From Bacilli bacterium (GTDB lineage Bacteria; Bacillota_I; Bacilli_A; RF39; UBA660): a stretch of DNA of 64,000 nt. The notes beneath the pieces are model-generated. The model saw only the letters and a program-made list of their open reading frames with translations. It ran no database searches and was not told the DNA's origin. The translations under genes were made by a program, and so were the position numbers. Each line of letters begins with the position of its first letter. Within the stretch, counting starts at the first letter, position 1. Positions 9,563 through 64,000 of the stretch are shown piece by piece. The stretch covers positions 2,282 to 66,281 of the forward strand of contig JAGCSA010000028.1 in assembly GCA_017964405.1 (NCBI GenBank). Direction: 5' to 3'.

Positions 9563-10094
9563 ATATTTCAAATTCCTCATAACTACCATTCGGAATCTTC
9601 CCATCTAATAAATTCCCCTTTAAAGGATCCTTTTTGATTAAATGACGAAGAGCACGATACGTTCCAGAATGAGTTACAATCAAAATACTCTTATCAGGGT
9701 ATTTTTCTTTAATCTCATTCAAAAAATCTTCACATCTCTCCAGAATATCCTGAACAGGTTCTACTCCATAATCAGAACGATTCTTATCATAATTCCAAAA
9801 TTGAAAAGCATTGTACTCTTCCACAGGTCTTCCTTCTAACTCTCCCATGTCTCTTTCTTGAATTCGATCGTCTCGAATAATCTCAACTCGGTCTCCTACA
9901 GCAACAAGAGCGGTCTCAAAACATCTAATAAATGGAGAAGTAAAACACAAATCGTAATGTAAGGCAGACAAATTATTTTTTAAACGAAGAGCCTGTCTTC
10001 TACCAGTCTCATTGAGTAGTACATTCTTTCTTCCTAATATTTTCCCTTCATAATTCTCTTCTGTCTCCCCATGACGTACAAGAGTAATTTTCAT
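9561..10094 (-). CDS. Histidine phosphatase family protein (phosphoglycerate mutase-like)
   Basis: LVRHGETEEN RHG catalytic motif. Confidence 0.8.
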   Translation of the reverse strand: MKITLVRHGETEENYEGKILGRKNVLLNETGRRQALRLKNNLSALHYDLCFTSPFIRCFETALVAVGDRVEIIRDDRIQERDMGELEGRPVEEYNAFQFWNYDKNRSDYGVEPVQDILERCEDFLNEIKEKYPDKSILIVTHSGTYRALRHLIKKDPLKGNLLDGKIPNGSYEEFEI

Positions 10095-11293
10095 GATTCT
10101 ACTCCTAAAACCTTTAAGGCTTTACTATAACGAATAAACTTACTCATATAACTTCCATCATCATAATAAGAGTATCCTACAATCATATATTCCCCTTTAT
10201 CATAAAGAATATCCGTAAAATAATCATCTCGATCTTCTCCATAAGAAATTGCATCAATATATTTTAAATTAAAATCATATTTCGCAATAATTCCATCATA
10301 AGAGTACTCGGTAATACCTCCCTCTTCTTGAGAAGTAGCCATCGTTCCAATCGCAACAACATGATCTTGATCATCAATAATAAGTTTATTGAATCTCTCA
10401 ATACCATCTCCTGTATAAACAGCTTGATCAATATAAACACAATGGAAATTATATCGTACAATCATCGCATCATTATTATCATTATCTCGTCTCAATGCCC
10501 CACAAATATAAATAAATTGATCAGAAGCAGCAATTCCACTAAATCCAAGAGAATCCGTCGTCTTATAATCATTATAGGTAATAAAATTACCCTCTAAATC
10601 ATACTGTACTAAAACTCCTAAATAATTATTGTCTGTACCAACGGTATAGATAGATCCATTATGAATTAATAAATCATTATAGATAGCACTCTTACTACTT
10701 CCATAAGTACGGTACCATAATAAATCTCCTTCTTTACTATACTTTACGAGAATCGCTCCACCCTCATGATCTCCTACTCTCGTATTACGATAAATACTTT
10801 GTCCCGTAACATAATATGCATCTTCTGTTACCACAATACTCGTAAATTTAGAATTATCTAGTAAAGAGAAATCCTTCTCAAATAAAACATTTCCTTCTTG
10901 ATCATATTTCACAATGAGAGCACGACGAATCGAATCTCGATGATCTTCTTCTGTCTTTTCATAACTACCAACGACAACAAAAGACTCTCCATCGACTACC
11001 ACTCCAAAGAAAGAACTATTATATCCAATATTATAAAGCTTTTCATAAGTCTTTTGTTTCTGAAGATCATATAAGGAAACCTTCGCTTTTTCATAAGCTA
11101 AATCATTGTCATTATTACTACCAACAGTGATATAGCCATCTCCTTTCGATACAATCGCATTAATACCTTCAAAATAAATAGAAGTCTCTTTTGGAAAGAA
11201 AACATGATAACCAACATAAAGGATTTCCAAAATCAAAATCGCAATACAGATAAATGAAATAGTTTGATAACGTCTTACTTTTCTACGATTCAT
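10091..11293 (-). CDS. Membrane-anchored beta-propeller-like repeat protein
   Basis: N-terminal TM; about six repeats of a-ILVKYd.eGnllW..yG type; 4-bp ATGA overlap with the downstream phosphatase. Confidence 0.4.
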   Translation of the reverse strand: MNRRKVRRYQTISFICIAILILEILYVGYHVFFPKETSIYFEGINAIVSKGDGYITVGSNNDNDLAYEKAKVSLYDLQKQKTYEKLYNIGYNSSFFGVVVDGESFVVVGSYEKTEEDHRDSIRRALIVKYDQEGNVLFEKDFSLLDNSKFTSIVVTEDAYYVTGQSIYRNTRVGDHEGGAILVKYSKEGDLLWYRTYGSSKSAIYNDLLIHNGSIYTVGTDNNYLGVLVQYDLEGNFITYNDYKTTDSLGFSGIAASDQFIYICGALRRDNDNNDAMIVRYNFHCVYIDQAVYTGDGIERFNKLIIDDQDHVVAIGTMATSQEEGGITEYSYDGIIAKYDFNLKYIDAISYGEDRDDYFTDILYDKGEYMIVGYSYYDDGSYMSKFIRYSKALKVLGVES

Positions 11294-18082: not shown

Positions 18083-19411
18083 ATGCTAAAGTTAAAGAAC
18101 ATAGAAAAAGAAAAATTTGATGAATTTGTTCGTAACCATAAGACCAAATCTCATTTTCTACAATCTCTTTCTTGGGGAGAGTTTTCCAGAGTAAAAAAGA
18201 ATCTAACTCCCTATTACATGGGATTAGTAAATGACGAAGATGAAATCGTCGCAGCAACTCTACTCTTAGAAAAACATCTTCCAATGAATAAATGTTATTT
18301 CTATGCCCCTCGTGGATTTGTACTAGATTATAAAAAGAAAGAAATCGTACGAGAGATGACAAAGAGAGTAAAAGAATTTGCGAAAAGTAAAAAAGCAATC
18401 TTTGTAAAAATAGATCCGGATATTATCAGAAAATCAACCAATTATCAAAATGAAAAAACAGAAAATCCTGATTATAATGAGATCTTCCAAACTCTAAAAT
18501 CTTGTGGTTTTAAACATCAAGGATATACAAAAAACTTTGAGACAATGCAACCAAGATATACCTTCCGAGTAGATTTAACACAAAGTATGGAAGATATAGA
18601 AGAACACTTTTCGAAAACAACCAAACAAAGAATTGCAAAAGCACAAAAACTAGATACAGAAGTCATGATAGGAGACAAAAGTGACATCAAAGAGTTCTAT
18701 CATCTAATGACACTAACAGAATCTAGAAAAGATTTTATATCCTATAACGAAGATTATTATGAAACATTATATGAAATCTTTAATGGAAATGAATCTACAA
18801 AAGCTACTCTATTCTTAGGAAAAATCAATATCACAAAGACAATCAAAGCATTAGAAAACAATTTAAAAACAGTGAATAATCAAATCTCTATATTACCAAT
18901 TGATAATTTAAGTAAAAGTGCCAAAGCAAAATTAACAGAATTAACCAAGCAAAAAGAAAATATTCAAGCAGAAATTGATAAATATGGAGAAGCGAAAAAA
19001 GAATATGGAAATGAAATTACATTAAGTGCTCATATGATTATTGAATATGGAAACAAAGCATGGGTTTTATATGCAGGAAATCATAATATTTTAAGTGAAA
19101 CCTATGTAAACTATAGTACATATTATGAACACATGAAGTATTGTAAAGAAAAAGGAATTGAAATATATGATCAATTCGGTACCATTGGAGATCTATCCAA
19201 AAATAATCCACGTTTAGGATTACATGAATTTAAAAAGAAATTTGGAGGAGACTACATTGAATTCATGGGAGAATGGGATTTAATTACAGATCCTCTCTTC
19301 TACTTTGTATTTACTAAACTAGTCCCAATTTACCGAAAAATCATTAGAAAACAAAGTAAGAAAAAACTAGAAGAAGAACTAAATCAAGACAAAGAAAAAG
19401 AGATCGAATGA
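18083..19411 (+). CDS. FemAB-family peptidoglycan cross-bridge aminoacyltransferase
   Basis: FemAB/MurM fold with central coiled-coil insertion (NLKTVNNQ...QKENIQAEIDKYGEAKK). Confidence 0.75.
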   Translation: MLKLKNIEKEKFDEFVRNHKTKSHFLQSLSWGEFSRVKKNLTPYYMGLVNDEDEIVAATLLLEKHLPMNKCYFYAPRGFVLDYKKKEIVREMTKRVKEFAKSKKAIFVKIDPDIIRKSTNYQNEKTENPDYNEIFQTLKSCGFKHQGYTKNFETMQPRYTFRVDLTQSMEDIEEHFSKTTKQRIAKAQKLDTEVMIGDKSDIKEFYHLMTLTESRKDFISYNEDYYETLYEIFNGNESTKATLFLGKINITKTIKALENNLKTVNNQISILPIDNLSKSAKAKLTELTKQKENIQAEIDKYGEAKKEYGNEITLSAHMIIEYGNKAWVLYAGNHNILSETYVNYSTYYEHMKYCKEKGIEIYDQFGTIGDLSKNNPRLGLHEFKKKFGGDYIEFMGEWDLITDPLFYFVFTKLVPIYRKIIRKQSKKKLEEELNQDKEKEIE

Positions 19412-19736: not shown

Positions 19737-20036
19737 TTAGAATAGATGACTTCCAGCAGATGCTAGATCATCCTCATTATCACTCAATATTTTTGCAGAA
19801 GTAACAATATTTTCTCCTCTTTGAGTAAGTCTTTGCTTAAAGTCCATTAATTCAGCAGTTTTTCCTTCGAAAGAACCCTTGTATGCAGTAGCAGCAGGAC
19901 CATTCCAAATACTTAATAATTCATGAGTATTTGATTCTAATTTGTGAATTTCTCCTAAAAAATCTTCTGAACTATCAATGGTGCTTTTTCCATCTTGACT
20001 CATTCCACCAGCTTGTACAATTAAACCATCAGACAT
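19737..20036 (-). CDS. WXG100 (ESAT-6-like) family protein
   Basis: 99 aa; LSIWNGPAATAY W-x-G turn. Confidence 0.7.
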   Translation of the reverse strand: MSDGLIVQAGGMSQDGKSTIDSSEDFLGEIHKLESNTHELLSIWNGPAATAYKGSFEGKTAELMDFKQRLTQRGENIVTSAKILSDNEDDLASAGSHLF

Positions 20037-20122: not shown

Positions 20123-20410
20123 CTATATTGAAATAGCAGCAAGTTGATCATCTAGTTCTTGAATCTGTTGAGCAGAGCTTTTAACAAACTCTCCAAAATC
20201 ATTCATTTCTTGTGCTTCTACAGTAGCAGCAGCTGTTTGTGTATTACAGGTTGTCATGAAAGAAGATTTGGCATCTCCATTCCATCCACTTAAATCAGAT
20301 TCAATATTAGATGCATACGTTGTAGTAGCAGTCTTTAAATCACTAGCAGCTGAAATCATCTTGTCTCCTGCCGCACTTACTTGACCAAAATCACAAACAA
20401 ATTTCGCCAT
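20123..20410 (-). CDS. WXG100 (ESAT-6-like) family protein
   Basis: 95 aa; LSGWNGDAKSSF W-x-G turn; ELDDQLAA C-terminus. Confidence 0.7.
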   Translation of the reverse strand: MAKFVCDFGQVSAAGDKMISAASDLKTATTTYASNIESDLSGWNGDAKSSFMTTCNTQTAAATVEAQEMNDFGEFVKSSAQQIQELDDQLAAISI

Positions 20411-20411
20411 A

Positions 20412-21851
20412 TTATACCTCCACAGCCGTAGTAGGCTTTGTTTCAGGTTGTCCCGTGGTTGGAGTTGTCTCAGGTGTTGTCTCCTCTGCTATCTTTACAT
20501 GAGGAGCCTCAGGTGCTTTTACCTTCTCAGAAGGTTTATCTTTTCCAACATAACGTAGAACACCATCCCAATTCTTATTGGAATAATTTGTAATACTAAT
20601 CTCATTACCACCAGAATCACCATCATGTCCATCTTGATTTCCGTGAGCTCCGATCATCTTACCATTTCCGTAATACATTTCTGTATGAGTACCTTCATGT
20701 AGTAAGACATCTCCTGGTTGTAACTTATTAACATCTGGAGTACCAGGAATCCATTCAAATCCTGCTTTTACAAATGCATTCTTCATATTACCGGTATAAC
20801 TAGCACCGGTTTCTTTTACCTTAATACCAGATGCTTCGTAAGCAGAGATAACAAAGGAAGAACAATCGTAATTTGGATTACCCCAACGAGTTTCTTGAGA
20901 ATATCCATGGGTATTATCATTGGCAGTTGCCGTTGCCCAATCAAGAGCAGAAGTAACATAAGCACCCACTGTATAAGTACGATCAGAACCTAAGTTCTGG
21001 ATCTTCGTAACATAATCTCCAATTTTTTCTTGGAAGTTACCTTCTCCATCTTTCTTCCAATCATCATTAACAAAGAATTTAACTTGATCCCCACATTTCT
21101 CATCAATTTGACCAATAATACACTTGAATTTTTGGCCATCTTTTAAGGTGAATTCAATCACATCTCCTACACTACCGTATACCTTAGCACAAGAGATAAT
21201 GAACATTCCACCAATTGTAGCATAACCAGCTTTATTATATTCTAAATCTTCATGTTCAAATAGCTTCTTACCAAGAGATGTGAGAGCATCTTTTGATACT
21301 TTATCATGAAGAATTCCCTTAACTTCTGTTTTAATATCAACTGGTTCCTTTGCAGGAGTTGTTTCAGGTGCAGTTGTCGTAGGAGCTTCCGTACTAGGAG
21401 TCGTAACAATTGGAGTATAGCCTCCACCTCCACCGGTAGAACCTCCGCCGCCACCACTATAAGTGCCGCCACTTCCACCAGTTGGATTACTGCCACCTTT
21501 ATTGTTATTATTACCGGTTGGATCACCAGGATTTTTTTGCTTTTCTTGCTCTTTTGCTTTCGCAGCATCCTCTGCTGCTTTTTCAGCAGAAGATTGGAAT
21601 TTTAAACTATTTTGTAAAGCTGTATGAGAAGATACAACCGTATTTAATACATTCGATGTATTTTTAATCTTTGTCACACAGGCTTCTATATTACTAGCAA
21701 TCACAGCTTTCGGAGAAGCAAAATCAAAATCTTCACAACTAGTATCATATCCACTAACAGAACTAGAAATACTAGAAACTTTCGATGCAAGTGCATCAAG
21801 AGAAGAAGCTCCTGCTGTAACAGCATCTGTTTCAATCATAAAAATTGACAT
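20412..21851 (-). CDS. LXG/WXG-like N-terminal domain fused via Gly-rich linker to NlpC/P60 peptidoglycan endopeptidase
   Basis: N-terminal ~100-aa helical domain; G/S/T-rich linker; NlpC/P60 core YDCSSFVISAY...HTEMYYGNG; Pro/Thr-rich tail. Confidence 0.7.
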   Translation of the reverse strand: MSIFMIETDAVTAGASSLDALASKVSSISSSVSGYDTSCEDFDFASPKAVIASNIEACVTKIKNTSNVLNTVVSSHTALQNSLKFQSSAEKAAEDAAKAKEQEKQKNPGDPTGNNNNKGGSNPTGGSGGTYSGGGGGSTGGGGGYTPIVTTPSTEAPTTTAPETTPAKEPVDIKTEVKGILHDKVSKDALTSLGKKLFEHEDLEYNKAGYATIGGMFIISCAKVYGSVGDVIEFTLKDGQKFKCIIGQIDEKCGDQVKFFVNDDWKKDGEGNFQEKIGDYVTKIQNLGSDRTYTVGAYVTSALDWATATANDNTHGYSQETRWGNPNYDCSSFVISAYEASGIKVKETGASYTGNMKNAFVKAGFEWIPGTPDVNKLQPGDVLLHEGTHTEMYYGNGKMIGAHGNQDGHDGDSGGNEISITNYSNKNWDGVLRYVGKDKPSEKVKAPEAPHVKIAEETTPETTPTTGQPETKPTTAVEV

Positions 21852-21869: not shown

Positions 21870-22775
21870 TTATGCTTTTTGAGCATCATAACCAACATAT
21901 CGTAATACCCCATCCCAAGGGAAATTAACATATTTAGATACATTGATTTCTTTTCCACTAGAGTCTCCATTTCGACCATCTTTGTCACCATGGGCTCCAA
22001 CATTCATACCATCTCCGATATACATCTCGGTATGATGATTCTCACTTAATAAAACATCTCCTGGCTGTAAATCATCCATTTTCGGATTACCAGGAATCCA
22101 TTCAAATCCAGCTTTCGTAAAAGCAGATCTCATATTTCCGGTATAACCGGCTCCTGCTTCTTTTACTTGAATACCTGCTGCCTCATAGGCAGAAATAACA
22201 AGAGAAGAACAGTCATAATTTGGATTTCCCCAACGAGTTTTTTGAGAATATCCATGGGAATTATCTGCTGCAACAGCAACAGCCCAATCAATCGCACCCT
22301 GTACAACAGACCCAACATTGGTTGCTGCTTTTGCAATCGTCTCTCCTGTTGCTAAATTCGTAGTAGCAATTGCAGTCGCTTCTAGCTTTGTTCCAGAAGC
22401 AGATGCTAAATTACTTTCAATTTGACTTTTTAAAGAAGCTAATTCATTTTGATAACGACTGACATCTGCAGAATACTTACTAGCAGCAGCAGTATCGTTA
22501 TTCGAAACAGCCTGATTATAATTCCCCTGAGAAATCGAAACATTTTGCTTACAAGTTTTATATTGTTCATACAAATCACAAGCAGTTGCAAAAGATTCCA
22601 TCTGTCCTTTAATCGCACTTAAGAATTCAGATGTAAACTGTTCGGCTTTTGAATGAAAACTATCATAACTACTTCCTTGCCAAGAACCACTTAATCCACT
22701 CACCGTAGAATCGTAATTGGAAGAGTAAGAAGCAAGATTCCCAGAATCAGATCTAACTTGTCCACCACTAACCAT
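21870..22775 (-). CDS. WXG-domain::NlpC/P60 peptidoglycan endopeptidase fusion
   Basis: N-terminal LSGSWQGSSYDSF W-x-G turn; C-terminal NlpC/P60 YDCSSLVISAY...HTEMYIGDG, ~70% identical to the domain of 20412-21851. Confidence 0.7.
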   Translation of the reverse strand: MVSGGQVRSDSGNLASYSSNYDSTVSGLSGSWQGSSYDSFHSKAEQFTSEFLSAIKGQMESFATACDLYEQYKTCKQNVSISQGNYNQAVSNNDTAAASKYSADVSRYQNELASLKSQIESNLASASGTKLEATAIATTNLATGETIAKAATNVGSVVQGAIDWAVAVAADNSHGYSQKTRWGNPNYDCSSLVISAYEAAGIQVKEAGAGYTGNMRSAFTKAGFEWIPGNPKMDDLQPGDVLLSENHHTEMYIGDGMNVGAHGDKDGRNGDSSGKEINVSKYVNFPWDGVLRYVGYDAQKA

Positions 22776-44233: not shown

Positions 44234-46516
44234 TTAATTTTTCTTAAATGCTCTTCTAGTTCTCTCTTCTTTTGTTTTAATTTTAACAGCCTGATTAATC
44301 GCATCGGAATCTCGAAATTGAGTCTCATGGATTTTTTCAATAACCGTTAAATCCACTTTCTTTGTTTCCTTAGAGGCACTTTTTACACATAATCGCAAAC
44401 GATCTCCAAGATAATAGTTTTGTTCCCCATCTAAAGAAACCAAAGAATAACTTTCTTCACTATAAACATAATCTCCCTTTAAATCCCATACACGTACAGT
44501 AGCTTCTGCTAGGTTATCAAATTGTACAACCATACATTCATTGGAAAGACCGATAACCGTTGCTTCACACTCTTCTCCAATATGATGAGACATCATATCA
44601 GCAAACTGCATACGGAATACTTCTTGCTCTAAATCATCTGCCACTTTTTCCGTATGAGTCACTCTCTCTGCAATCTCAGGAAGTCTAGAAATCCATTTTT
44701 TTCTTTGAACCAATCCTGGATCTGGTCGAAAGACACAGTCCCAAGAAATATCCTGATTAATTTTATCACCATATCTTCTAGCTGGAGATGTTCCCTGCAT
44801 GTATTCATCTTCTGCCAATCCATTATGTCCCACATTCACTTCACTATATTTGGCACGTGATTGTGTCTTGATTAATTCTGTTAATAAGAAACTTGATAAT
44901 CTTCCACAATTAGAAACATGAGAAATAAGTTTTTGGAAAGCAGCATGATTGGATGCTAATTCTTCTGCATCATATCCATGAAAAGGAAGACCAATGGCAT
45001 CCAACATTTCTAAATACTTCTTTAATTTATCAACATTTGGTGCTTCATGAACACGATAAAGACATGGAATACCATGTTTCTGAAAGAATTTAGCTCTGGT
45101 AACATTAGCAATTAACATAAATTCTTCAATAATGTTTTCCGCAACATCTTGTGTACGAACACCAATATCTAACATATGACCATTCGGTCCATAAATACCA
45201 CTCGGTTCAGGTCGATTAAATTCATAAGCTCCGGCAGCCATTCTCTTATCATGCAGAATTTTAGCCAAATCTCTCATAACCTGTAGTGTTTGTTCATAAG
45301 ATTGATATTCTGTAGGAATATCTCCCCCTTTTAAGATTTGATTCACGGTATCATAATTCATTTTTAATTTAGAACGAGTAACAGTAGGAACATAACGGTA
45401 ATTTACTACTTTTCCTTCTGGAGTAATCTCTAAAATATCTGATATTGTCAAACGATCTTTATCTTGATTTAAAGAACCAATTTGATTGGCAATTTTACGA
45501 GGATAATTAGGAAGTACAATTCCACCAGGATAATAACTATTACCTTTACGGAATCCATCTCGATCAAGAGGAGATCCATAAGGAACTAAAGAACTAATAT
45601 CAATAATATCTACTTCTAAAACATAGTTTCCTCTTTCATTCTTATAACAACTAATGGCATCATCCATATCTTTTGTCGTAATACCATCTAAAGTAATCGT
45701 TTCATTTTGGGTACGATCTTCTCTTCCAATACGATCAACATCTCTTACTTCATCGATAATATGCTCTAGTTGTTCTAAAGATTCATTACTAAATTCATTA
45801 TCTACCCCTAATTTAAATGCTTCCCATAGAATATCTTCATTGGGATCATCTTTATGGTTAAATACTCTTACAATAGAAGCCGTATAAAAATTGGGAGCTG
45901 TTTGTTCCTCTAAAGAAACAGCAACTCTTTGTCCCTCAATCGCTTCCCCTTTTAAAGCAATGGTAATGGATTGTTTTTTCTTATCAATAGGACGTACAAA
46001 ATAACTAGAACCAATACAATAAACTTCTCCTGGAATATATTCTAGATTTCGATCTAAGACCTTAACAACCTTAATACCCTGAGTACCACCAATATCAATT
46101 AATACAAAATCTCCATCAATAGCACCATTCGTATTTTCTTTATGAACTTCATACTTTTCATTATTAACAACTAATTGACCATCCCGATCTACATAAGAGG
46201 TTGTAACAGATACTTTTCCACGACCATCTCGATTTCCATAAAATCTACCTTTTCGAAAAGAAGTTTTGGAAAAAGCAATATAATTCTCATTCGGAGTCAT
46301 ATAGATCTCATATTGAGTTACCCCTTCTCGAATCAGTTCCAATAATTCTTTCTTTTCTTCTGCCGTTAAAATAACATCGCTATGCAATTCTTCTGATTTC
46401 AACTTTTCAATTCTAGAAACAATTTTTTCAAAAGAAGCAGCCTTCTTTTCCTTTTTTAATGCTAGTTCTAGATAATGTTTCATTCCACTCATCCCCCAAT
46501 ACGTATACCTTAACAC
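44234..46516 (-). CDS. RNB-domain exoribonuclease (RNase II/R family paralog)
   Basis: ITLDGITTKDMDDAIS RNB motif; cold-shock/S1-like flanks. Confidence 0.75.
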   Translation of the reverse strand: MLRYTYWGMSGMKHYLELALKKEKKAASFEKIVSRIEKLKSEELHSDVILTAEEKKELLELIREGVTQYEIYMTPNENYIAFSKTSFRKGRFYGNRDGRGKVSVTTSYVDRDGQLVVNNEKYEVHKENTNGAIDGDFVLIDIGGTQGIKVVKVLDRNLEYIPGEVYCIGSSYFVRPIDKKKQSITIALKGEAIEGQRVAVSLEEQTAPNFYTASIVRVFNHKDDPNEDILWEAFKLGVDNEFSNESLEQLEHIIDEVRDVDRIGREDRTQNETITLDGITTKDMDDAISCYKNERGNYVLEVDIIDISSLVPYGSPLDRDGFRKGNSYYPGGIVLPNYPRKIANQIGSLNQDKDRLTISDILEITPEGKVVNYRYVPTVTRSKLKMNYDTVNQILKGGDIPTEYQSYEQTLQVMRDLAKILHDKRMAAGAYEFNRPEPSGIYGPNGHMLDIGVRTQDVAENIIEEFMLIANVTRAKFFQKHGIPCLYRVHEAPNVDKLKKYLEMLDAIGLPFHGYDAEELASNHAAFQKLISHVSNCGRLSSFLLTELIKTQSRAKYSEVNVGHNGLAEDEYMQGTSPARRYGDKINQDISWDCVFRPDPGLVQRKKWISRLPEIAERVTHTEKVADDLEQEVFRMQFADMMSHHIGEECEATVIGLSNECMVVQFDNLAEATVRVWDLKGDYVYSEESYSLVSLDGEQNYYLGDRLRLCVKSASKETKKVDLTVIEKIHETQFRDSDAINQAVKIKTKEERTRRAFKKN

Positions 46517-46551: not shown

Positions 46552-47571
46552 CTAAGAAATTCTTCTAACGGTAAGAATATGTGTACCAGATCCATTTAAC
46601 CAATAATTAACATCACTGACGATAACACCGGTACCATAATTAGCTGCATGAATCATCTGTCCATTACCAACATATAAAGCAGAATGGGTCGGATTTCCAT
46701 CCGAATAACCCCATATCAGAATATCTCCTGGTTGAGCCTCTGCATAGCTAACTCCATATCCTACATATTGTTGAGAATAAGAACTTCTACTAATAGAAAT
46801 GCCCATACAAGAATAGACATAAGATACAAATCCACTACAATCAAATCCATATGGACCTGCAGAATTCGCCATATATGGCATTCCAAGTAACGAATAAGCA
46901 ATGGAAACAACATCATTTCCTTGTGGATTCGCTGGGGCTCCATAATGAACAGGATAATAGACAGGAACTGGTTTTTCCTCTACTTCTAACTGATACGTTA
47001 AAGTAGCTTTATTACCAGAACCATCAACAGCTGTAATCGTAATTTGATGAGTTCCAACACTACTAATATCTCCATCAGAAGATAATGCATAGTATTTCAA
47101 ACTATCAGCAGGAGCATTTTCCAAAAACTCCAAATCCCCATCAATCGCATCATTAACAGATGCAATATTCTCTTTGAGATCATAGTCATCTCCCTCTGTA
47201 ATGGATACAGATTCATTCTTTAAAGAAATAATAGGAGATACCGTATCTACAACCGATATCACAACGGGTACATCTTTCACCATATTATCTTTTTTAACTT
47301 CTAGAATAACCTCTTGTGGTCCAAGAACACTGGTATCAAGATCCTGTTTTACAGAAACGATTTCACCATCAACCTCTTTTATCAATTTTTTGATATCATA
47401 ATTAGCAGTACCATATTCAACAGATGCAGTCTTTTTCACAACGACCTTAATACTTTGAAAAGTAGTGTAATTACGATATGCACAACAACTGATTATCATT
47501 ACGAATGATAACACCAACAATAAGAAGACGCGAATAACCTTCTTTATCGACGGTCTATCAAGACTTTTCAT
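46552..47571 (-). CDS. Membrane-anchored NlpC/P60 (C40) cell-wall endopeptidase with Ig-like domains
   Basis: YGFDCSGFVSYVY...HSALYVGNG...H catalytic triad region. Confidence 0.8.
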   Translation of the reverse strand: MKSLDRPSIKKVIRVFLLLVLSFVMIISCCAYRNYTTFQSIKVVVKKTASVEYGTANYDIKKLIKEVDGEIVSVKQDLDTSVLGPQEVILEVKKDNMVKDVPVVISVVDTVSPIISLKNESVSITEGDDYDLKENIASVNDAIDGDLEFLENAPADSLKYYALSSDGDISSVGTHQITITAVDGSGNKATLTYQLEVEEKPVPVYYPVHYGAPANPQGNDVVSIAYSLLGMPYMANSAGPYGFDCSGFVSYVYSCMGISISRSSYSQQYVGYGVSYAEAQPGDILIWGYSDGNPTHSALYVGNGQMIHAANYGTGVIVSDVNYWLNGSGTHILTVRRIS

Positions 47572-47744: not shown

Positions 47745-48128
47745 TTAGCTGATATAATTGAAGTTTGTTCCAACACCAGTACCACCACTAGAAGGAGCAG
47801 CACTTGCAGTTGAACCAGATCCAAGACTTTCAGCAGCAGCTCTTAAAGCAGCTTCCTCTTCATCATATGCACTACAAATATTAGCAATACTACTAATAAA
47901 ATTTGCATGTGTTGAACCAAAATCAGTAAACATTTGATCTACTGTTTCGAAAGCAGCAAAATAAGTATCAGCTCCGGAACTAATCCAAGAACCTTTAAGA
48001 GTTGCAGCTTCATTACGAATCTGTGTAAATAGAGAATCTACTTCCGCATAAATATTGTTTATTTCTGTAGCTACTTGACCAACTGAATCTGTTTCTACAT
48101 CAATATTATTATCACCAATAAATGTCAT
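47745..48128 (-). CDS. ESAT-6/WXG100-like small protein
   Basis: 127 aa helical; LKGSWISSGADTYFAAFE turn; Ser/Gly-rich tail. Confidence 0.5.
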   Translation of the reverse strand: MTFIGDNNIDVETDSVGQVATEINNIYAEVDSLFTQIRNEAATLKGSWISSGADTYFAAFETVDQMFTDFGSTHANFISSIANICSAYDEEEAALRAAAESLGSGSTASAAPSSGGTGVGTNFNYIS

Positions 48129-49322: not shown

Positions 49323-51587
49323 TTATTGATCCATACCGATGCCTTGTAACCATTCTTTATCCATGAATGGTGCAGTAGCTTCTTCTAATTCACCCTCTTC
49401 ATGAGTTTCTTCAACAGTCTCAGTTTGTTCTAATGGGTTATTAGCAAATTGTACTTCATCAACATCGTTACTATCATCGAAGTAATCATCCATAGAGATT
49501 CCAGCATATACAAAGTCAGCATCATCAACATTTTCAAAACATTGATTAATAACATTATACATATTGTAATCATCAATAGCATTCTTACCATCAATAATCA
49601 TTGTAATGAACAATAAGTAGTCGATAATCTTATGTTTCTCATCAAACATAGAATATCCGTAAAGCTTAGCTAACTCTTCTTCGCAAGAAACACCTTCTTT
49701 AACAGCTTTATCAACTTTCTTAGAATGTTCTCTTAATTCACTAGCAAGAATCTTAAACTTAGAATTCTTGAATGTTTCAATTTCATCTTCAGAGAATCCA
49801 ACTTTCTTCATTAATTTAGAAACAATAGCTTGATAATCAGGCCCTAATGCTTCCCAATCTTCTGGAGTAAAGTGGATAACACTTAACTTCGTAGCAGCAA
49901 GGATTCCTCCACCAGCAGCAGCACTACCACCAGCAATACCAGCAGCAGCAATAATTCCTGCACTTGCTTTATTCGTATTGATTCCTTGAGTAGTTCCACC
50001 CATATGTGGTGCAACACCAGATGCTAATTTAGCAACCCCCTTACCGATGGCATCTGCAACTCCTGTAGCAGCACCAGCAGCTGTAGCTAAACCTTCTTTA
50101 GCAGCTCCAGCAACGGCAGCAGCAACGCCTCCACCTTCACCGGTCTTAACTCCTCCACCAGTAGTTCCACCACCAGGTTTCGTTGGATCTTCAGCTCCAG
50201 GAAGTCCTCCACCAATACTTGTACCAGGTGTCGTAGCAGGAGGATTGGTTGGATTGGTATCTCCACCAGGTTGTTCTCCAGTTGGTTCTCCACCTGTAGG
50301 TTCTTCTCCAGTAGGAACTTCACCAACAGGTTGAGGTGTTTCAGTAGAAGGTTGTTGTGGAAGTAAATCATGAATAATCTTTTGATATTCTTCCTCAGTA
50401 ATTTCACCCTTCTTCAATTTTTCATATGCATCACTAATTTGTTGCATTGCTTTTGCATAATCTTCTGGACTCATTTGACCAGTTCTAACACTTTCAAGCA
50501 TTGAATTAATATCAGCCAAAGCTTGAGCATATGTTTCTTGACTAACCTTACCAGAGGCAACTCCCTCAAGTAATTGATTAATATCACTCATTGTTTGATG
50601 ATATAGGTTATCATCAATCTTGCCATTCTTTAATAGATCCATTGCACCATTCATGGTGTCTAATGTAGCCTTATAAGTATCTTGATCGATTTGACCATTC
50701 TTTAATAAGGTTGCAGCATCTTCAATGTTATCCATTGTAGCAGCGAAAGATTCATCACTCATCTTATCAAGTGCTAAGCAATCCATAGCTTTATCCATCG
50801 TATCAAGAGTTTGTTTATAAGTATCCTCATCCATCTTACCATTTGCAACAGCGGCAGCTGCAGCATCCATAGCATCAAGGAACTTCGTATAAGCTTCTTC
50901 ACTCATCTTACCAGAGTCAACTAAACTCATAGCACGTTTCAACGCATCAACAGCCTTAGCATACGTTTCATCAGAAATCTTACCATCTTTTAAGATATCC
51001 ATTAAACTACTTAAAGTATCAATTGTATGAGCATACGTTTCATCTTTAATCTTCTTAGCTTTTAATAAAGCAATAGCAGCAGCAATGGCATTCAATGTCT
51101 TAGCATAAGATCCTTCACTCATCTTACCGTCATCACGAAGGCTCTTTGCCTTATCTTTGGCATCACATGTCTTAGCCCAAGACTCATCACTCATCTCATC
51201 AGGTTTTTCCTCATCACCCTTCTTACCAGGGCCATCAGGCGTAACCGGAGTAACACCTCCACCACCATTTGGTGTCTTGCTCTTACCAGCACCATCAATA
51301 TTTTCATTATCTTGTTCAATTAAAGCAGCAATATAAGCTCTAGCAGCTTCAATATTGGTTCTAGCGTCTGAAACAATTTTATCGGTAAAGGCAGCTAATG
51401 TTGAAAAGTATTGAATATCATATTCAGCACCTAAAGAACCGGTAGCTCCTTGGCTATTACCAGATCCATAATAATCTTCCAATGTGTTGCAAATTGTTTC
51501 TACATTACTTACTGCTTGTTCAGCATCAGCATAAATGATTTTAATATCAGCCATATTATTAGTCGAATAGACAAGTTCGACTAGCAC
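49323..51587 (-). CDS. Large secreted/effector-like protein: WXG/LXG-like N-domain + 24-aa tandem repeats + Gly/Ala-rich hydrophobic segments + acidic C-terminal domain
   Basis: 754-aa ORF (start GTG 51587 or ATG 51551); helical N-terminus; ~10.5 repeats GKMSxExYxKxLDxMxxAxxLLKx; PT/G-rich linker; GGGVAAAVAGAA and IIAAAGIAGGSAAAGGGILAA segments. Confidence 0.6.
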   Translation of the reverse strand: MLVELVYSTNNMADIKIIYADAEQAVSNVETICNTLEDYYGSGNSQGATGSLGAEYDIQYFSTLAAFTDKIVSDARTNIEAARAYIAALIEQDNENIDGAGKSKTPNGGGGVTPVTPDGPGKKGDEEKPDEMSDESWAKTCDAKDKAKSLRDDGKMSEGSYAKTLNAIAAAIALLKAKKIKDETYAHTIDTLSSLMDILKDGKISDETYAKAVDALKRAMSLVDSGKMSEEAYTKFLDAMDAAAAAVANGKMDEDTYKQTLDTMDKAMDCLALDKMSDESFAATMDNIEDAATLLKNGQIDQDTYKATLDTMNGAMDLLKNGKIDDNLYHQTMSDINQLLEGVASGKVSQETYAQALADINSMLESVRTGQMSPEDYAKAMQQISDAYEKLKKGEITEEEYQKIIHDLLPQQPSTETPQPVGEVPTGEEPTGGEPTGEQPGGDTNPTNPPATTPGTSIGGGLPGAEDPTKPGGGTTGGGVKTGEGGGVAAAVAGAAKEGLATAAGAATGVADAIGKGVAKLASGVAPHMGGTTQGINTNKASAGIIAAAGIAGGSAAAGGGILAATKLSVIHFTPEDWEALGPDYQAIVSKLMKKVGFSEDEIETFKNSKFKILASELREHSKKVDKAVKEGVSCEEELAKLYGYSMFDEKHKIIDYLLFITMIIDGKNAIDDYNMYNVINQCFENVDDADFVYAGISMDDYFDDSNDVDEVQFANNPLEQTETVEETHEEGELEEATAPFMDKEWLQGIGMDQ

Positions 51588-55914: not shown

Positions 55915-58026
55915 TTAACTTACCTTTCTAACAATTTCAAAATCAACTGTTTTTTCTTCTTTATTAGCTCTAACTACTTTGACAACAACTCTTTCTCCAA
56001 TCGAATACTTCATATGACTCTTTTCTCCTGTAAGAGTTAAGTGTTCTTCATCAAAATGATAGAAATCATCCAACTCTCTTAAAGGAACTAACCCTTCAAT
56101 TAAGTTATCTAATTCTACAAACATACCAAAACTAGTAATAGAAGAAATCATACCTTCAAAAGTCTCCCCAATATGTTTTTCCATATATTCAGCCATCTTC
56201 ATATCATCGACTTCTCTCTCACAATCAACAGATGCTCTCTCTCTTTCAGAAGAATGTTCTGCAATACCAGGAAGTTTTTCTTCCCATTTATGAACCGTCT
56301 CCATATCAGCATGACCATCAAATAAATACGTATGAAGTAAACGATGAACCGTCGTATCTGGGAATCGACGTATCGGAGAAGTAAAATGCGTATAACAATC
56401 ACTTGCTAAACCATAATGTCCTAAGTTATCAGGACTATAAATAGCCTTCTTCATACTTCTTAATAACAAATTAGAAAGAATCTTATATTCTGGTTTATCC
56501 TCTAATTGAAAAACAATATCTTGAACAAACTTAGGACTTAAGTCCTTCAAATCTCCATTGACATGATATCCAAGTCCACTGACAAATCCTAAGAAACTAC
56601 GAATCTTATCTTCCTCTGGAGTTTCATGAATACGATAAATAAAAGGAAGATTCATAAAATAAATATGAGTTGCCACACACTCATTAGCAGCAATCATAAA
56701 GTCTTCTATTAACTTTTCTCCTGTACCACGGTCTCTTAATACAACATCCGTAGGAACACAGTTCTCATCTACTAAGATTTTAGCCTCATCAACAGCAAAA
56801 TCAATATAACCTCTCTTAATCTTTGCCTTTCTTAAAATATCCGCTAACTCTGCCATTGTTTTTAAGTCATATACATAAGGCTCATATTCATCAGGAACCT
56901 GATCTTTTTCTAAGATACTATTAACTTTCTTATAAGTCATTTGAATTCGAGAACGAATGACACTTGGGAAAATCTCATAATCCAATTGTTTTCCTGCTCC
57001 ATCGAACTCCATCACACATGAGATTGCTAAACGATCTACATTTGGATTTAAAGAACAAATTCCATTGGATAATTCATGAGGAATCATAGGAATAACACGG
57101 TCTACTAAATAAACACTCGTTCCCCTCTCTTCAGCTGCTTCATTTAAAGCAGTGCCCTCTCTTACATAATAACTGACATCTGCAATATGAACTCCTAATT
57201 GATAATGACCATTCGATAAAATTTTAATACTAATGGCATCATCAATATCTTTTGTATCATCTCCATCAATCGTAAAAATAGTCTCTTCTCTTAAATCTCT
57301 ACGATCTTTCATCTCTTCTTCTGAGACTTCCATCGGAATATGTTTTACTTCATTCTTTACTTCATCAGAAAATTCTACAGGAATATTATATTTATAAATA
57401 ATAGAAAGAATATCCACTCCTGGATCATTTTGATGTCCCAAGATTTCCATAACTCTTCCTTCATATCTTCCAGAACTATTCAATTTCTTCTCTAAACGAA
57501 CAACTACTTTATGCCCGTCTACAGCATTTAAACTCTTTCCTTTTGGAATCTCAATCATTAACTTAATCTTATTATCATCTAATTGAATATGACCAATTCC
57601 CTTATCATCAAATGTAATAACACCAACAAAATTGGTCATCTTACGAGCAAGAATCTTTAAAACTCTACCCTCTAAACGATCCAAATTCATTTTACTCGTT
57701 ATTTCAACTAAAACAACATCATCATGAATAGCCCCATTCATATTCTCTTGCGATACATAAATATCATCATCTAAATTTTCTACTTCTACAAATCCAAAAC
57801 CCTTTTTATTAACACGCATGATACCTTTTCGAAGATGACTATTCTCTAGTAACATATACTTATTCTTATTAGAGTGATAAATCAAAACCTCTTCTTCTAA
57901 TTGTTTCAAATCCTTTAATAAAATTTCTAATTCTTCTGCTGTCGATATTTCTAAGGATTCTTGCAATTCATCAATATCTAAAGCACGATCTGTATTTCTA
58001 AGTACATTGAGAATACTCTCTCTCAT
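55915..58026 (-). CDS. rnr: Ribonuclease R
   Basis: FTIDGDDTKDIDDAIS RNB motif; C-terminal S1 domain; rnr-smpB-ssrA synteny. Confidence 0.9.
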   Translation of the reverse strand: MRESILNVLRNTDRALDIDELQESLEISTAEELEILLKDLKQLEEEVLIYHSNKNKYMLLENSHLRKGIMRVNKKGFGFVEVENLDDDIYVSQENMNGAIHDDVVLVEITSKMNLDRLEGRVLKILARKMTNFVGVITFDDKGIGHIQLDDNKIKLMIEIPKGKSLNAVDGHKVVVRLEKKLNSSGRYEGRVMEILGHQNDPGVDILSIIYKYNIPVEFSDEVKNEVKHIPMEVSEEEMKDRRDLREETIFTIDGDDTKDIDDAISIKILSNGHYQLGVHIADVSYYVREGTALNEAAEERGTSVYLVDRVIPMIPHELSNGICSLNPNVDRLAISCVMEFDGAGKQLDYEIFPSVIRSRIQMTYKKVNSILEKDQVPDEYEPYVYDLKTMAELADILRKAKIKRGYIDFAVDEAKILVDENCVPTDVVLRDRGTGEKLIEDFMIAANECVATHIYFMNLPFIYRIHETPEEDKIRSFLGFVSGLGYHVNGDLKDLSPKFVQDIVFQLEDKPEYKILSNLLLRSMKKAIYSPDNLGHYGLASDCYTHFTSPIRRFPDTTVHRLLHTYLFDGHADMETVHKWEEKLPGIAEHSSERERASVDCEREVDDMKMAEYMEKHIGETFEGMISSITSFGMFVELDNLIEGLVPLRELDDFYHFDEEHLTLTGEKSHMKYSIGERVVVKVVRANKEEKTVDFEIVRKVS

Positions 58027-61565: not shown

Positions 61566-62816
61566 ATGAAAATAGTGAAATTAAATCCAGCACAATTTGA
61601 TCGTTTTGCTTCAAACCATCGCTATCGTAACTATTACCAAACCTCTATGTATGGTTCAGTGATGTCAAAATTTGGTTATCGATGCCAATACCTTGGAGTA
61701 GTCAATGAATACAATAAACTAATTGGTGCTTCTCTTGTCATTTATAAAGAAGTATGGAGAAAAAATAAAATTGCCTATGCTCCAAGAGGATTCTTATTCA
61801 ATTATGAAGACAAAGAACAAACAGAAGAACTTGCCAGTCTATTAAAAAGAACACTAGGAAAACAAAACTTTATGTTAATGAGAATGGATCCCTTCATTCC
61901 TCTATCCGTAAGAGATACAGAAGGAAATATTATGAATACCAATGATGCAGGAAATGATATTATTCATAATCTAGAAGATGCAGGATTCGATTATCTAGGA
62001 AAAAACTTATATTTTGAAACAGAAAAACCTAGATGGGAAGCTCTTGTTATGTTACAAAGAGATGTAAGAGACATCTTCGCAAGACTAGATAAAAGAACAA
62101 GAAATAAGATCAGAAAAGCAAAAGGAAATGGTCTAGTCGTTGTAAAAGATGAATCACAAAACATCAACCGTTTATACCAATATGTAGGAAAGAAAGATCA
62201 TAAACCATTATCTTTTTATCGAGAAATGGTTAATAACTTTGGAAAAGATATCGATATCTTCTACGCAAAATTACGAACAGAATCTTATATCGTAAATAGT
62301 AGAAGAAATTATGAAAAAGAACAAGAATATAATGATAATCTAGCAGAAAGAATTCAAGATATCAGCCTAGATCCAAAAGAAAGAGAAGCATTCTTAAATA
62401 AAAAGATGGAATCTGATAAATTAATTACTGCTTATAAAAACAGTCTATTAAAGGCAACAGATCTATTAAAACAAAGACCAGAAGGAATCATTGTCGCAGG
62501 AGCTATGGTGATTAAATATGATAATGCTGCATATATATTTACAGAAGGAGTAGATAGTTCCTATAGTGCGATTAGTGCAAGTACTTTAATGAAATGGCAA
62601 TTGATTGAAACCTATAATGAACAAGGATTTAAATATATCAATTTAAATGCAATCGTAGGAGACTTTGAAAATAAAAATCCAAAGAAAAATCCATATATTG
62701 GATTAAATGAATCAAAATTAGGTTTTAATGCAACAGTAACAGAATATATTGGAGAATTTGATATTGTATTAAATAGTTTCTCTTATAATCTATATAAAAA
62801 AGTAAATAAAGAATAA
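61566..62816 (+). CDS. FemAB-family peptidoglycan cross-bridge aminoacyltransferase, second paralog
   Basis: YAPRGFLFNYEDKEQ conserved block shared with 18083-19411; central coiled-coil. Confidence 0.75.
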   Translation: MKIVKLNPAQFDRFASNHRYRNYYQTSMYGSVMSKFGYRCQYLGVVNEYNKLIGASLVIYKEVWRKNKIAYAPRGFLFNYEDKEQTEELASLLKRTLGKQNFMLMRMDPFIPLSVRDTEGNIMNTNDAGNDIIHNLEDAGFDYLGKNLYFETEKPRWEALVMLQRDVRDIFARLDKRTRNKIRKAKGNGLVVVKDESQNINRLYQYVGKKDHKPLSFYREMVNNFGKDIDIFYAKLRTESYIVNSRRNYEKEQEYNDNLAERIQDISLDPKEREAFLNKKMESDKLITAYKNSLLKATDLLKQRPEGIIVAGAMVIKYDNAAYIFTEGVDSSYSAISASTLMKWQLIETYNEQGFKYINLNAIVGDFENKNPKKNPYIGLNESKLGFNATVTEYIGEFDIVLNSFSYNLYKKVNKE

Positions 62817-62836
62817 GAAAACGTATAAAGAAAACT

Positions 62837-63904
62837 TTATACGTTTTTTTCATCATCATATACAACTTCTACAACATTCGTAAAATATGGTTGTCCAATC
62901 CGATCTGGCTTAGAAGAATCATCTACAATTAAACCCGTTTTCGTATCAATCTTGGTTAAACACATTCCGACATTGCAATCCGAATCACAAACATGTGCAA
63001 CCGTAATACAATCATTATCTTTATAGACGATCATTCCCACATGACCCTTCATATAAGCAATATCTCCTGCTTTCACACGGCCATATACACCTTCTGCTGT
63101 AATAGACTCACAATTTCCTAGATTATAATAAGACTTTTCGCCTTTCCCAGAATTGGTCGTCGTAAAACAATCAATCGAATCCGTAGAGACTCCTCCATTA
63201 TAGAGAGCCCAATTCACAAACCCAGAACAATCCATTCCATAAACTCGTTGCTCATTAAAATGATTATCATATTGAATGGTACCCCAATCAGGATTAACAC
63301 CATCCTGATTTTTTTGATGTCCTGCTGCCCAGAAATAAGAAATATGAGGGAACTCGGTTGCTAAAAACATAGCATCCGCCACTACCTTTAAACGAATTTT
63401 AGATAATTTATCATTCATTTCATGGAAAGCATCATTATAATAAGTAGTCTCATATCCTGGAAGCAATATATCTTTGGAGATTACTTCATTTAAAGGAGTA
63501 GTTCCATTCCCAAATTTCCGATGAAGATAATCAGAAAACAACTGAATACTCATCGATTCAAATCCTTTTTCTTCATGTTCATCAATCATATAAATCCCAT
63601 CAAATAATTTTAATTCTCTTTTATCCCCAAGTCCTAAGGAATACTCAATACTAGCATCCAAAGACTGCTCCATATCAGAAACTAATGAATCAATTCCAAG
63701 AGAAACAGCATCTGTATCCTGATACAAAGAATCAGCTGAAATACCATCAAAACAACCATCATGCATAGAACTGACATTCAAAATTTGAGAAACAGCACTA
63801 TCCAAAGTATTGAACACATTCTCTTGTCCTTTTAAACGACTAAAATCAGAAAGAGAAGTAATGGATTGTGTTAATAGATTATAATCTACGTAAAGGCTAG
63901 ACAT
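62837..63904 (-). CDS. LXG/WXG-like N-terminal helical domain fused to NlpC/P60 endopeptidase, third family member
   Basis: N-terminus MSSLYVDYNLLTQSITSLSDF...; C-terminal GMDCSGFVNWALYNGG...GHVGMIV...H. Confidence 0.6.
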   Translation of the reverse strand: MSSLYVDYNLLTQSITSLSDFSRLKGQENVFNTLDSAVSQILNVSSMHDGCFDGISADSLYQDTDAVSLGIDSLVSDMEQSLDASIEYSLGLGDKRELKLFDGIYMIDEHEEKGFESMSIQLFSDYLHRKFGNGTTPLNEVISKDILLPGYETTYYNDAFHEMNDKLSKIRLKVVADAMFLATEFPHISYFWAAGHQKNQDGVNPDWGTIQYDNHFNEQRVYGMDCSGFVNWALYNGGVSTDSIDCFTTTNSGKGEKSYYNLGNCESITAEGVYGRVKAGDIAYMKGHVGMIVYKDNDCITVAHVCDSDCNVGMCLTKIDTKTGLIVDDSSKPDRIGQPYFTNVVEVVYDDEKNV

Positions 63905-63907
63905 CTA

Positions 63908-64000
63908 TATCATCCCCTTTACTTGATTATATTTATTTTGATAATAAGTAATAGACTCCTTACAAGCACTCATATCATGACTCAAAGAAGAGCGATAACT
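63908..64000 (-). CDS. 3' end of an upstream ORF continuing beyond the window (stop abuts ATG of 62837-63904)
   Basis: In-frame ...SYRSSLSHDMSACKESITYYQNKYNQVKGMI-stop; TAG immediately precedes the next ATG. Confidence 0.3.

Follow-up and report, generated by a model that had tools for sequence, protein, structure and literature searches.

A helical head-and-partner gene pair encoding a putative type VII-like exported peptidoglycan hydrolase in uncultured Bacilli

How might a predicted cell-wall hydrolase reach the wall when neither it nor the protein encoded beside it carries a signal peptide? The question is raised by a gene at the end of a 64,000-nucleotide stretch of DNA from a Bacilli bacterium (assembly GCA_017964405.1, contig JAGCSA010000028.1, positions 2,282 to 66,281; hereafter the window), whose 355-amino-acid (aa) product joins a helical N-terminal domain (the head) to a C-terminal NlpC/P60-like domain (Table 1). 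The protein begins MSSLYVDYNLLTQSITSLSDF in the list of open reading frames (ORFs), is present unchanged on eight contigs (the longest of 75.7 kb) and, as the 100% identical P0001 recorded on five contigs, is named only 'hypothetical protein [Bacilli bacterium]' at NCBI. A signal peptide or transmembrane (TM) segment was looked for along the protein and none was found, the peak hydrophobicity of its first 60 residues being 0.87. Directly upstream, and reaching beyond the window, lies a gene for a 161-aa, all-helical protein (the partner). Here we argue, with a probability that we put at about 0.55, that the two genes encode a two-partner, type VII-like exported peptidoglycan hydrolase. The starting point was an annotation of the window made from its letters alone (the original prediction), and the ORF that it described at 62837..63904 on the reverse strand, with GMDCSGFVNW (aa 223-232) and GHVGMIV (aa 287-293), is as stated.

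The NlpC/P60 core assigned to the C-terminal half was confirmed at the level of the family. All 13 family members compared match PF00877 (NLPC_P60) at E<=1 (best 1.8e-4), nine of them also match CHAP, and two relatives pass the PF00877 gathering score of 23 bits (P0030 with 28.6 bits, locus L025 with 24.3 bits). Across the 13 sequences, which share 25-70% identity, Cys226 (DCSGF), His288 (GHVGM) and His304 (VAHV) are unchanged, and the invariant positions include P186, Y190, G195, H196, D225-C226-S227-G228-F229, W232, G280-D281, H288, G290 and H304 (the alignment, A1, and the AlphaFold2 (AF2) model lack Met1, and their numbering is that of the full-length protein minus 1). The protein has the D-C-S-G-type cysteine, the histidine some 50-60 residues on and the third polar residue, one of His, Asn, Gln or Glu, by which NlpC/P60 enzymes are recognized, together with a PxxxYFWxGGH motif at aa 186-196. 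The C-terminal half is, on these motifs, a divergent NlpC/P60-superfamily cysteine peptidase with a predicted Cys-His-His triad; the family as a whole is placed within the superfamily by its profile matches, and the window copy on its own would not be called.

A local hidden Markov model (HMM) of the catalytic domain matches the 355-aa protein at E=5e-85. A search of 5.8e9 proteins returned only 17 relatives, and a genome scan found more than 120 relatives of the catalytic domain in uncultured gut Bacilli, Erysipelotrichaceae, Mollicutes-like organisms and Clostridia. Of the more distant members of the wider catalytic family at genome loci, the majority have an N-terminal TM or signal segment, and the domain would therefore normally act outside the membrane. 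Among PDB sequences, a profile search matched an NLP/P60 lipoprotein, Tn916 Orf14-type wall hydrolases and, weakly, CwlO (E 0.034). The AF2 model of the 355-aa protein is confident in the catalytic half only, and its best Foldseek matches were CHAP/NlpC-P60 lysins and the putative gamma-D-glutamyl-L-diamino acid endopeptidase 3m1u.

Matches of this kind, to phage CHAP lysins and Tn916-like wall hydrolases, would also be found if the gene were a lysin left behind by a prophage or a conjugative element, whether an endolysin, a tail lysin or an enzyme of the CwlT or Tn916 Orf14 type, and one IMG/VR contig does carry a relative of the catalytic domain. However, 50,697 phage records searched by tblastn gave no match, the gene is surrounded by tuf, femAB and murD and not by genes of phage or conjugation type, the arrangement is syntenic in four species and the GC content is native. 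We rejected a phage lysin on the tblastn result and the single IMG/VR relative, and consider such an origin scarcely credible.

The head recurs on proteins that otherwise differ. A profile of aa 1-146 searched against 1.84e9 representatives recovered 21 proteins, every one matched at its extreme N-terminus, and across 24 head proteins with differing C-terminal parts His48 is invariant while Asp49 and Cys51 are at least 90% conserved. AF2 predicts a hairpin with helix 1 at about aa 8-47, a loop at about 48-56 that holds these residues, and helix 2 at about 57-90 (the helices are 7-46 and 56-89 in the model). In an alignment of 21 heads, most of the others end helix 2 with [FY]xxxE, and the consensus across the 24 proteins reads F-x-x-A-E; in the window clade the spacing is irregular (Y88-SLGLG-D94) and the motif only approximate. 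The cargo behind the head is NlpC/P60-like in P0024, P0030, P0035, P0037 and P0039, an NAGPA phosphodiester glycosidase in P0031 (1.5e-17) and another enzyme-like domain in P0025. In P0032, P0034 and P0036 it is tail-anchored, combining long stretches rich in Ser/Thr/Asn/Pro with a single TM helix at the C-terminus and an acidic tail, and the protein encoded at L009:4726-6345, matched by the local head HMM, has the same layout. Because it is found at the first residues of proteins with different downstream parts, the head is, as judged from this distribution, a portable N-terminal module. Scanning metagenomes with the head alignment yielded two short contigs only. The head profile search also returned P0022 (161 aa), a protein with a signal peptide in which some 70 aa nearly identical to helix 2 of the clade-2 head precede an HELGH motif; this is possibly a chimeric assembly or a recombinant.

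Is the head a known targeting domain? The original prediction called the N-terminal region LXG/WXG-like. A helical hairpin is indeed predicted, but membership of either family did not hold up: no WxG loop was found in the heads, whose loop carries HDxC in its place; LXG (PF04740) matched none of the 24 head proteins at E<=1, nor is an LxG conserved among them; and the N-domain of the window copy matched nothing in Pfam or NCBIfam. By these searches the head is not a member of WXG100 or LXG, and it resembles WXG100 weakly. In hhalign comparisons with 11 WXG-like sequences, taken from this window and from L009, the alignment was collinear and placed loop on loop, with HDxC at the WxG position and a probability of 13-43%. 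The P value was 2.5e-4 under one column rule and 2e-3 under the other, against 0.019 for the reversed control and at least 0.46 for thirty column shuffles. WxG-motif proteins accounted for five of the eight best distinct sub-threshold matches when the head HMM was run over 4141 ORFs, and the head of P0036 matches TIGR03930 over the whole model at 8e-4.

The second component of the proposed system is the partner. The frame that enters the window at 63905-64000 on the reverse strand ends ITYYQNKYNQVKGMI-TAG / YYQNKYNQVKGMI-TAG, and its stop codon (63905-63907) abuts the hydrolase ATG (63902-63904) with no gap, as had been noted. The junction is similarly tight in orthologues and distant relatives, ranging from -4 to +13 nt (L007, L018, L025, L026, L009, L106 and L109). 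Longer contigs supplied the complete gene and bore out the expectation of a coupled gene outside the window: it is a dedicated helical partner, not a housekeeping gene, and tuf lies one gene further up. The suggestion that it would be WXG-like was right as to a small helical partner, but the protein is not a WXG100 protein of 100 aa; it has 161 aa and belongs to a new family, matching no Pfam or NCBIfam model. No signal peptide or TM segment was found in it. A homologue search with this protein recovered the query alone, owing to the word filter. It aligns over its full length with a 154-aa protein encoded upstream of the distant homologue P0012 (25% identity, E 7e-10), and six family members (alignment A3) share 22 invariant positions, G159 among them. 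The invariant C-terminal Gly codon lies within partner residues 157-161 (63908-63922, reverse strand), inside the AAGGGG site of the hydrolase gene; constraint on translation may explain its conservation no less than constraint on the protein.

A partner HMM matches the gene directly upstream of every head gene for which upstream sequence is available. These include the four clade-1 species (window/L001, L007, L018 and L026), clade 2 (L009, L020 and L023), L025 (3e-33), L109 (5e-21) and L106, where the cargo is NAGPA (8e-20); in L105 the match (9.5e-9) is to the N-terminus of a 550-aa protein encoded upstream of the tail-anchored P0036. A single-sequence AF2 model of the partner (mean pLDDT, the predicted local distance difference test score, 75) has helices at 17-44, 52-126 (interrupted for one residue at 73) and 130-160 and a conserved E..G-L-S in the first loop. 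Foldseek matched it to generic helical hairpins only and was uninformative. Strict co-occurrence and coupling argue for a stoichiometric complex, which the head and the partner would form. In L026 (Erysipelotrichaceae metagenome-assembled genome (MAG) RUG12586) two ORFs, of 103 aa (9998-10309) and 173 aa (10357-10878), take the place of the syntenic orthologue, and the linker region is missing; either the gene has become a pseudogene or the assembly is at fault.

The divisome hydrolases of the CwlO/PcsB/RipC type, in which an N-terminal coiled coil docks on FtsEX and switches the enzyme on, likewise place an NlpC/P60 or CHAP domain C-terminal to a helical region. The weak match to the CwlO catalytic domain and the cell-wall neighbourhood of the gene would agree with such a role. 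Enzymes of this type carry Sec signal peptides, however, whereas the 355-aa protein has none. There is no ftsEX gene in the vicinity, the head does not resemble RipC, CwlO or PcsB in sequence, and it is a short hairpin common to non-hydrolase cargo and always accompanied by a dedicated, cytoplasmic-looking partner. We regard a divisome hydrolase as very improbable.

Partner and hydrolase appear to be expressed together and to belong to the core genome. The gene order on the 75.7-kb contig is rpsG - fusA - tuf - [161 aa] - [355 aa] - <femAB - murD - murI, and 20 bp separate the hydrolase gene from the convergent FemAB gene. A tuf terminator precedes the partner gene and is followed by a candidate promoter, TTGATT-17-TGnTATACT, with an extended -10; the promoter scan performed at chance level (12 sites against 10.3 expected), and this site is a candidate only. 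At the other end, a hairpin with T-runs on both sides is read as the shared bidirectional terminator of the hydrolase gene and the convergent FemAB gene. The GC content of the pair region, 0.315, equals that of the rest of the window, and tuf-pair-femAB-murD synteny is kept in four species at 41-100% identity. In another lineage the position of the pair is fixed between prsW/ftsW and rluB/polC. The conserved gene order indicates that the pair is a fixed syntenic feature of the core genome, and not a variable island, in at least two lineages.

Genes associated with type VII secretion accompany the pair in other lineages. Clade 2 (L009 and L020) and L109 share the order prsW, several genes for helical proteins of about 100 aa, a large gene, DUF4176, partner and head::NlpC/P60. 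In L009 and L020 a tail-anchored head protein is encoded between the large gene and DUF4176; the product of its L109 counterpart (591 aa) gave no head HMM match. Three of the small helical genes in L009 have sub-threshold WXG100 matches, and one has a W-S-G loop. L105 contains two WXG100 genes and two DUF4176 genes along with the partner-domain/head pair. In clade 2, L105 and L109 DUF4176 lies directly upstream of the partner, and DUF4176 proteins are chaperones of toxins exported by the T7SSb, a type VII secretion system (T7SS) (PMC12478183). In the prsW...polC lineage a further protein of about 103 aa, which joins a TM helix at its N-terminus to a PTS_EIIB-like domain (E 2.6e-5; L009:8429-8740 and L109:12445-12753), is encoded downstream of the hydrolase; its gene adjoins the hydrolase gene in L009, and in L110 a glycosyltransferase gene lies between.

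Such a setting could also suit an interbacterial weapon, exported in the same way: a polymorphic type VII effector that degrades the wall of competitors, against which the producer is protected by wall chemistry, with the convergent FemAB enzyme altering the cross-bridge, and not by an immunity protein. Interchangeable C-terminal cargo on a common head follows the logic of polymorphic toxins, the WXG100/DUF4176 clusters that hold the pair in other lineages are of a kind usual in T7SSb effector islands, and a catalogue of putative T7SS toxins in Mycobacteriales includes WXG100-like::NlpC/P60 proteins accompanied by Lap/Tap-like genes (PMC13444075). Both signal-less NlpC/P60 loci of the window converge on a FemAB paralogue (18083-19411 and 61566-62816), a link that is speculative. 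FemAB-type enzymes, Lif and Zif, are the self-protection factors for lysostaphin and zoocin A. However, the window hydrolase is followed by no small immunity gene, FemAB being 20 bp away; the membrane PTS_EIIB-like gene downstream in clade 2 is not consistently adjacent, another gene intervening in L110; the locus is fixed, syntenic and core in at least two lineages; a FemAB gene beside murD and murI is equally expected of a housekeeping FemX; and FemAB is not adjacent in L025, clade 2 or L109. A weapon therefore seems unlikely to us, though it is the most probable of the four rivals weighed here. We lean instead to a role in the producer's own wall, because the pair is a syntenic core feature beside cell-wall synthesis genes with no dedicated immunity gene, and because its base composition is native.

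Several observations weigh against export by a type VII-like route. DUF4176 is missing from the window locus, and neither the window nor the 10 kb around any related locus yielded a T7SS core gene (EssC/FtsK-SpoIIIE, EssB, EsaA or YukD). The likeness of the head to WXG100 is sub-threshold throughout: the window protein does not match WXG100 (PF06013 / TIGR03930) at E<=10, and among the 24 head proteins only P0036 does, at E 0.0023 and 18.6 bits against a cutoff of 27.3. The head model reaches a pLDDT of only 50-64, the Foldseek matches of the catalytic half are not significant (E 0.08-0.4), and the window copy meets PF00877 at E=0.043 and 14.3 bits, below the gathering score. Finally, the closest stand-alone relatives of the catalytic domain (P0005-P0007) have neither head nor signal, and therefore a missing signal need not imply type VII export. 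These closest relatives, stand-alone proteins of 215-290 aa, are encoded at L012:8001-8681, L015:8001-8861, L027:834-2407, L028 and L029; L027 holds two tandem copies, and P0007 follows a 1164-aa protein with TM segments and a HEIGH motif.

These head-less, signal-less relatives fit a different view, in which the enzyme would be a cytoplasmic, YkfC-like gamma-D-Glu-diamino-acid peptidase whose substrates would be precursors of peptidoglycan or peptides being recycled, and head and partner would serve only oligomerization or regulation. Neither protein of the pair has a signal peptide or TM segment, the neighbouring murD, murI and femAB products act on cytoplasmic precursors, and 3m1u is among the top fold matches. 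Against this, the head is common to cargo that is clearly extracytoplasmic (the NAGPA glycosidase, and long Ser/Thr/Pro-rich stalks with a single C-terminal TM helix), it is associated with WXG100 and DUF4176 genes, and the majority of the more distant catalytic-family members are anchored N-terminally. We consider a cytoplasmic enzyme improbable, more so than a weapon.

Our preferred model, a two-partner exported hydrolase, would work as follows. The 161-aa and 355-aa genes would form a two-gene operon, transcribed from the promoter-like site after the tuf terminator to the bidirectional 3' terminator and translationally coupled. The head, a WXG100-superfamily-like helix-loop-helix with an HDxC loop and a YxxxD/E-like motif after helix 2, would pair with the helical partner into a helical bundle. 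This bundle would act as a composite export signal for a type VII-like route, comparable with the EsxA/EsxB, PE/PPE and LXG/Lap complexes, and would carry the Sec-signal-less NlpC/P60-type peptidase (Cys226/His288/His304) across the membrane. Once outside, the enzyme would cleave stem peptides or cross-bridges of peptidoglycan, probably in the producer's own wall, for remodelling, for separation or to clear a path for secretion.

More tentatively, the HDxC hairpin and its partner of about 160 aa may represent an undescribed class of bipartite export signal that replaces Sec signal peptides on housekeeping envelope proteins, wall hydrolases as well as tail-anchored surface proteins, in a group of uncultured, low-GC gut Bacilli, and a type VII-like or unknown pathway may there do routine wall maintenance in place of warfare. 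We think this doubtful as it stands; the argument for routine maintenance is that the genes are core, fixed beside murD/murI/femAB or ftsW/prsW, and without immunity genes. T7SS in Bacillota is known almost entirely through the WXG100 and LXG substrates of cultured pathogens. The present locus points to a third kind of head and partner, modelled by neither Pfam nor NCBIfam, on wall enzymes and surface proteins of uncultured rumen and gut Bacilli. If export is true, the recognition rules for type VII cargo are wider than thought, the head and partner profiles can be used to annotate such cargo in metagenomes, and the core position beside peptidoglycan synthesis genes argues for a pathway that serves ordinary wall growth. 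If it is not, a divergent NlpC/P60 family with an obligate helical partner has still been described.

The original prediction had grouped the 355-aa protein with two further loci of the window, at 20-22 kb and at 49323-51587, as at least three members of one fusion family. Its remark that the protein has diverged further than the 20-22 kb pair agrees with BLASTP, which gave nothing significant against 20412-21851, 21870-22775 or 49323-51587. The kinship itself was not supported: hhalign comparison of the N-domains gave P=0.016, 0.53 and 0.035, respectively, with HMM E values of at least 0.84, the value for 20412-21851; the catalytic domains differ, being ELLD-type in the 20-22 kb pair and divergent NLPC_P60 in the 355-aa protein; and 49323-51587 contains no NlpC/P60 domain. 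The 355-aa protein and the 20-22 kb proteins appear by these comparisons to share an architecture and not to be one fusion family. The layout of 49323-51587 is like that of P0032, P0034, P0036 and L009:4726-6345, and the head HMM does not match it.

Elsewhere in the window, three ORFs of about 95 aa follow the 479-aa NlpC/P60 protein at 20412-21851, the first beginning 1 nt past its stop codon. Two of the three are WXG100 genes, and 19.4-22.8 kb would therefore be a WXG100 gene cluster with two hydrolases. Judging by these loci, WXG100-type proteins seem to be in use in this genome and to be joined there to wall hydrolases. A homologue search with the WXG100 protein of the window recovered that protein alone. 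The clearest NlpC/P60 protein of the window, at 46552-47571, had been missed. The pairing of FemAB paralogues with hydrolase loci could be coincidence or a functional link, such as protection of the producer through an altered cross-bridge. The window also encodes two paralogues of RNase II/R type (RNB domain), no more than 12 kb apart (44234-46516 and 55915-58026, both on the reverse strand).

Table 1. Coordinates of the features discussed, in window positions; (-) marks the reverse and (+) the forward strand.
Feature	Coordinates	Strand	Details and basis
Hydrolase gene	62837..63904	(-)	355 aa, ATG start; helical head, low-confidence linker, NlpC/P60-like catalytic domain; ORF list
Head domain, aa 1-110	63575..63904	(-)	AF2 secondary structure, head profile, alignment of 21 heads
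Loop motif H48-D49-G50-C51 (CAT GAT GGT TGT)	63752..63763	(-)	conservation in 24 proteins, hhalign
End of helix 2, Y88-S-L-G-L-G-D94	63623..63643	(-)	local version of [FY]xxxE; head alignment
Linker, aa 111-147	63464..63574	(-)	weakly conserved; pLDDT 30-38 over about aa 81-150
Predicted NlpC/P60/CHAP-like catalytic domain, aa 148-351	62852..63463	(-)	codons of Cys226 63227-63229, His288 63041-63043, His304 62993-62995
Partner gene, 3' end	63905..64000	(-)	last 31 codons and TAG; full gene of 161 aa = L001:3999-4484, past the window edge
AAGGGG, Shine-Dalgarno-like ribosome-binding run for the hydrolase gene	63914..63919	(-)	within the partner's conserved C-terminal V-K/E-G codons; sequence reading
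Hairpin, predicted terminator	62818..62847	both	13-bp stem, T-runs both sides; = L001:5542-5571; overlaps hydrolase stop codon; terminator scan
FemAB-family paralogue	61566-62816	(+)	convergent on a signal-less helical::NlpC/P60 locus
FemAB-family paralogue	18083-19411	(+)	convergent on a signal-less helical::NlpC/P60 locus
ORFs of about 95 aa	19426-19716, 19737-20036, 20123-20410	(-)	directly downstream of the 479-aa NlpC/P60 protein 20412-21851
WXG100 gene	19737-20036	(-)	28.4 bits, above cutoff
Near-cutoff WXG100 gene	20123-20410	(-)	25.1 bits
W-Q-G loop protein fused to ELLD/NlpC-P60 domain	21870-22775		
NlpC/P60 protein	46552-47571	(-)	E 3.5e-22; N-terminal membrane anchor/signal segment; just downstream of 47745-48128
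WXG100 gene	47745-48128		above Pfam cutoff; NCBI: 'WXG100 family type VII secretion target'
Tail-anchored-type protein	49323-51587	(-)	helical N-terminus, helical repeats of about 30 aa, Gly/Ala/Pro-rich stretch, one TM helix, acidic tail

How does the pair compare with known systems? Like the WXG100 proteins EsxA and EsxB, the head is predicted to be a hairpin of two helices, about 100 aa long, whose loop carries a conserved motif, and it lacks a Sec signal; its gene lies beside that of a helical partner with tight translational coupling; most heads carry a YxxxD/E-like motif after helix 2; and true WXG100 genes share its loci in other lineages and supply the best sub-threshold matches of the head HMM. 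Unlike them, it has an H-D-x-C loop and no significant HMM match, it forms the N-terminus of a 355-aa enzyme where they are free proteins of 100 aa, and its partner has 161 aa in four predicted helical segments and forms a separate, unmodelled family.

The LXG toxins, with Lap1/Lap2 and DUF4176 (Ltc), offer a second parallel: an N-terminal helical targeting-type domain before a variable C-terminal cargo, small helical partner genes directly upstream, and a middle region of low confidence. DUF4176 directly upstream of the partner in clade 2, L105 and L109 extends this comparison (PMC12478183, PMC9600955). In contrast to LXG toxins, however, the pair matches none of the Pfam models LXG, DUF3130 and DUF3958; LXG domains have about 200 aa and the head about 110; a single partner of 161 aa takes the place of two of about 100 aa; and the window locus lacks both DUF4176 and an adjacent immunity gene and is core and syntenic, not a variable island.

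The mycobacterial ESX substrates PE and PPE likewise combine a short two-helix unit bearing YxxxD/E with a longer multi-helix one, either of which may carry a C-terminal enzyme domain, and WXG100-like::NlpC/P60 proteins of Mycobacteriales, reported bioinformatically, have the same cargo together with Lap/Tap-like genes (PMC13444075). The Bacillota MAGs belong to another phylum, show no sequence relationship to PE/PPE and encode the long partner first, so that this is an analogy of design only.

The enzyme itself is like the NlpC/P60 and CHAP endopeptidases (CwlO, LytF, YkfC, Tn916 Orf14, phage CHAP lysins and EssH) in its DCSG cysteine, GH(V/I)G histidine and third histidine, in the preceding Y-x-W-G-G-type motif and, tentatively, in the predicted papain-like alpha+beta fold. 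The known enzymes compared here, EssH included, use Sec, whereas the window protein has no signal peptide; it differs further in that the window copy falls under the Pfam cutoff and in a family-specific C-terminal extension, TKIDTxTGLIVDD...R.G..YFT. The case of EssH in S. aureus shows that a T7SSb can depend on a dedicated hydrolase of the NlpC/P60 superfamily (PMC13059805, PMC10765036).

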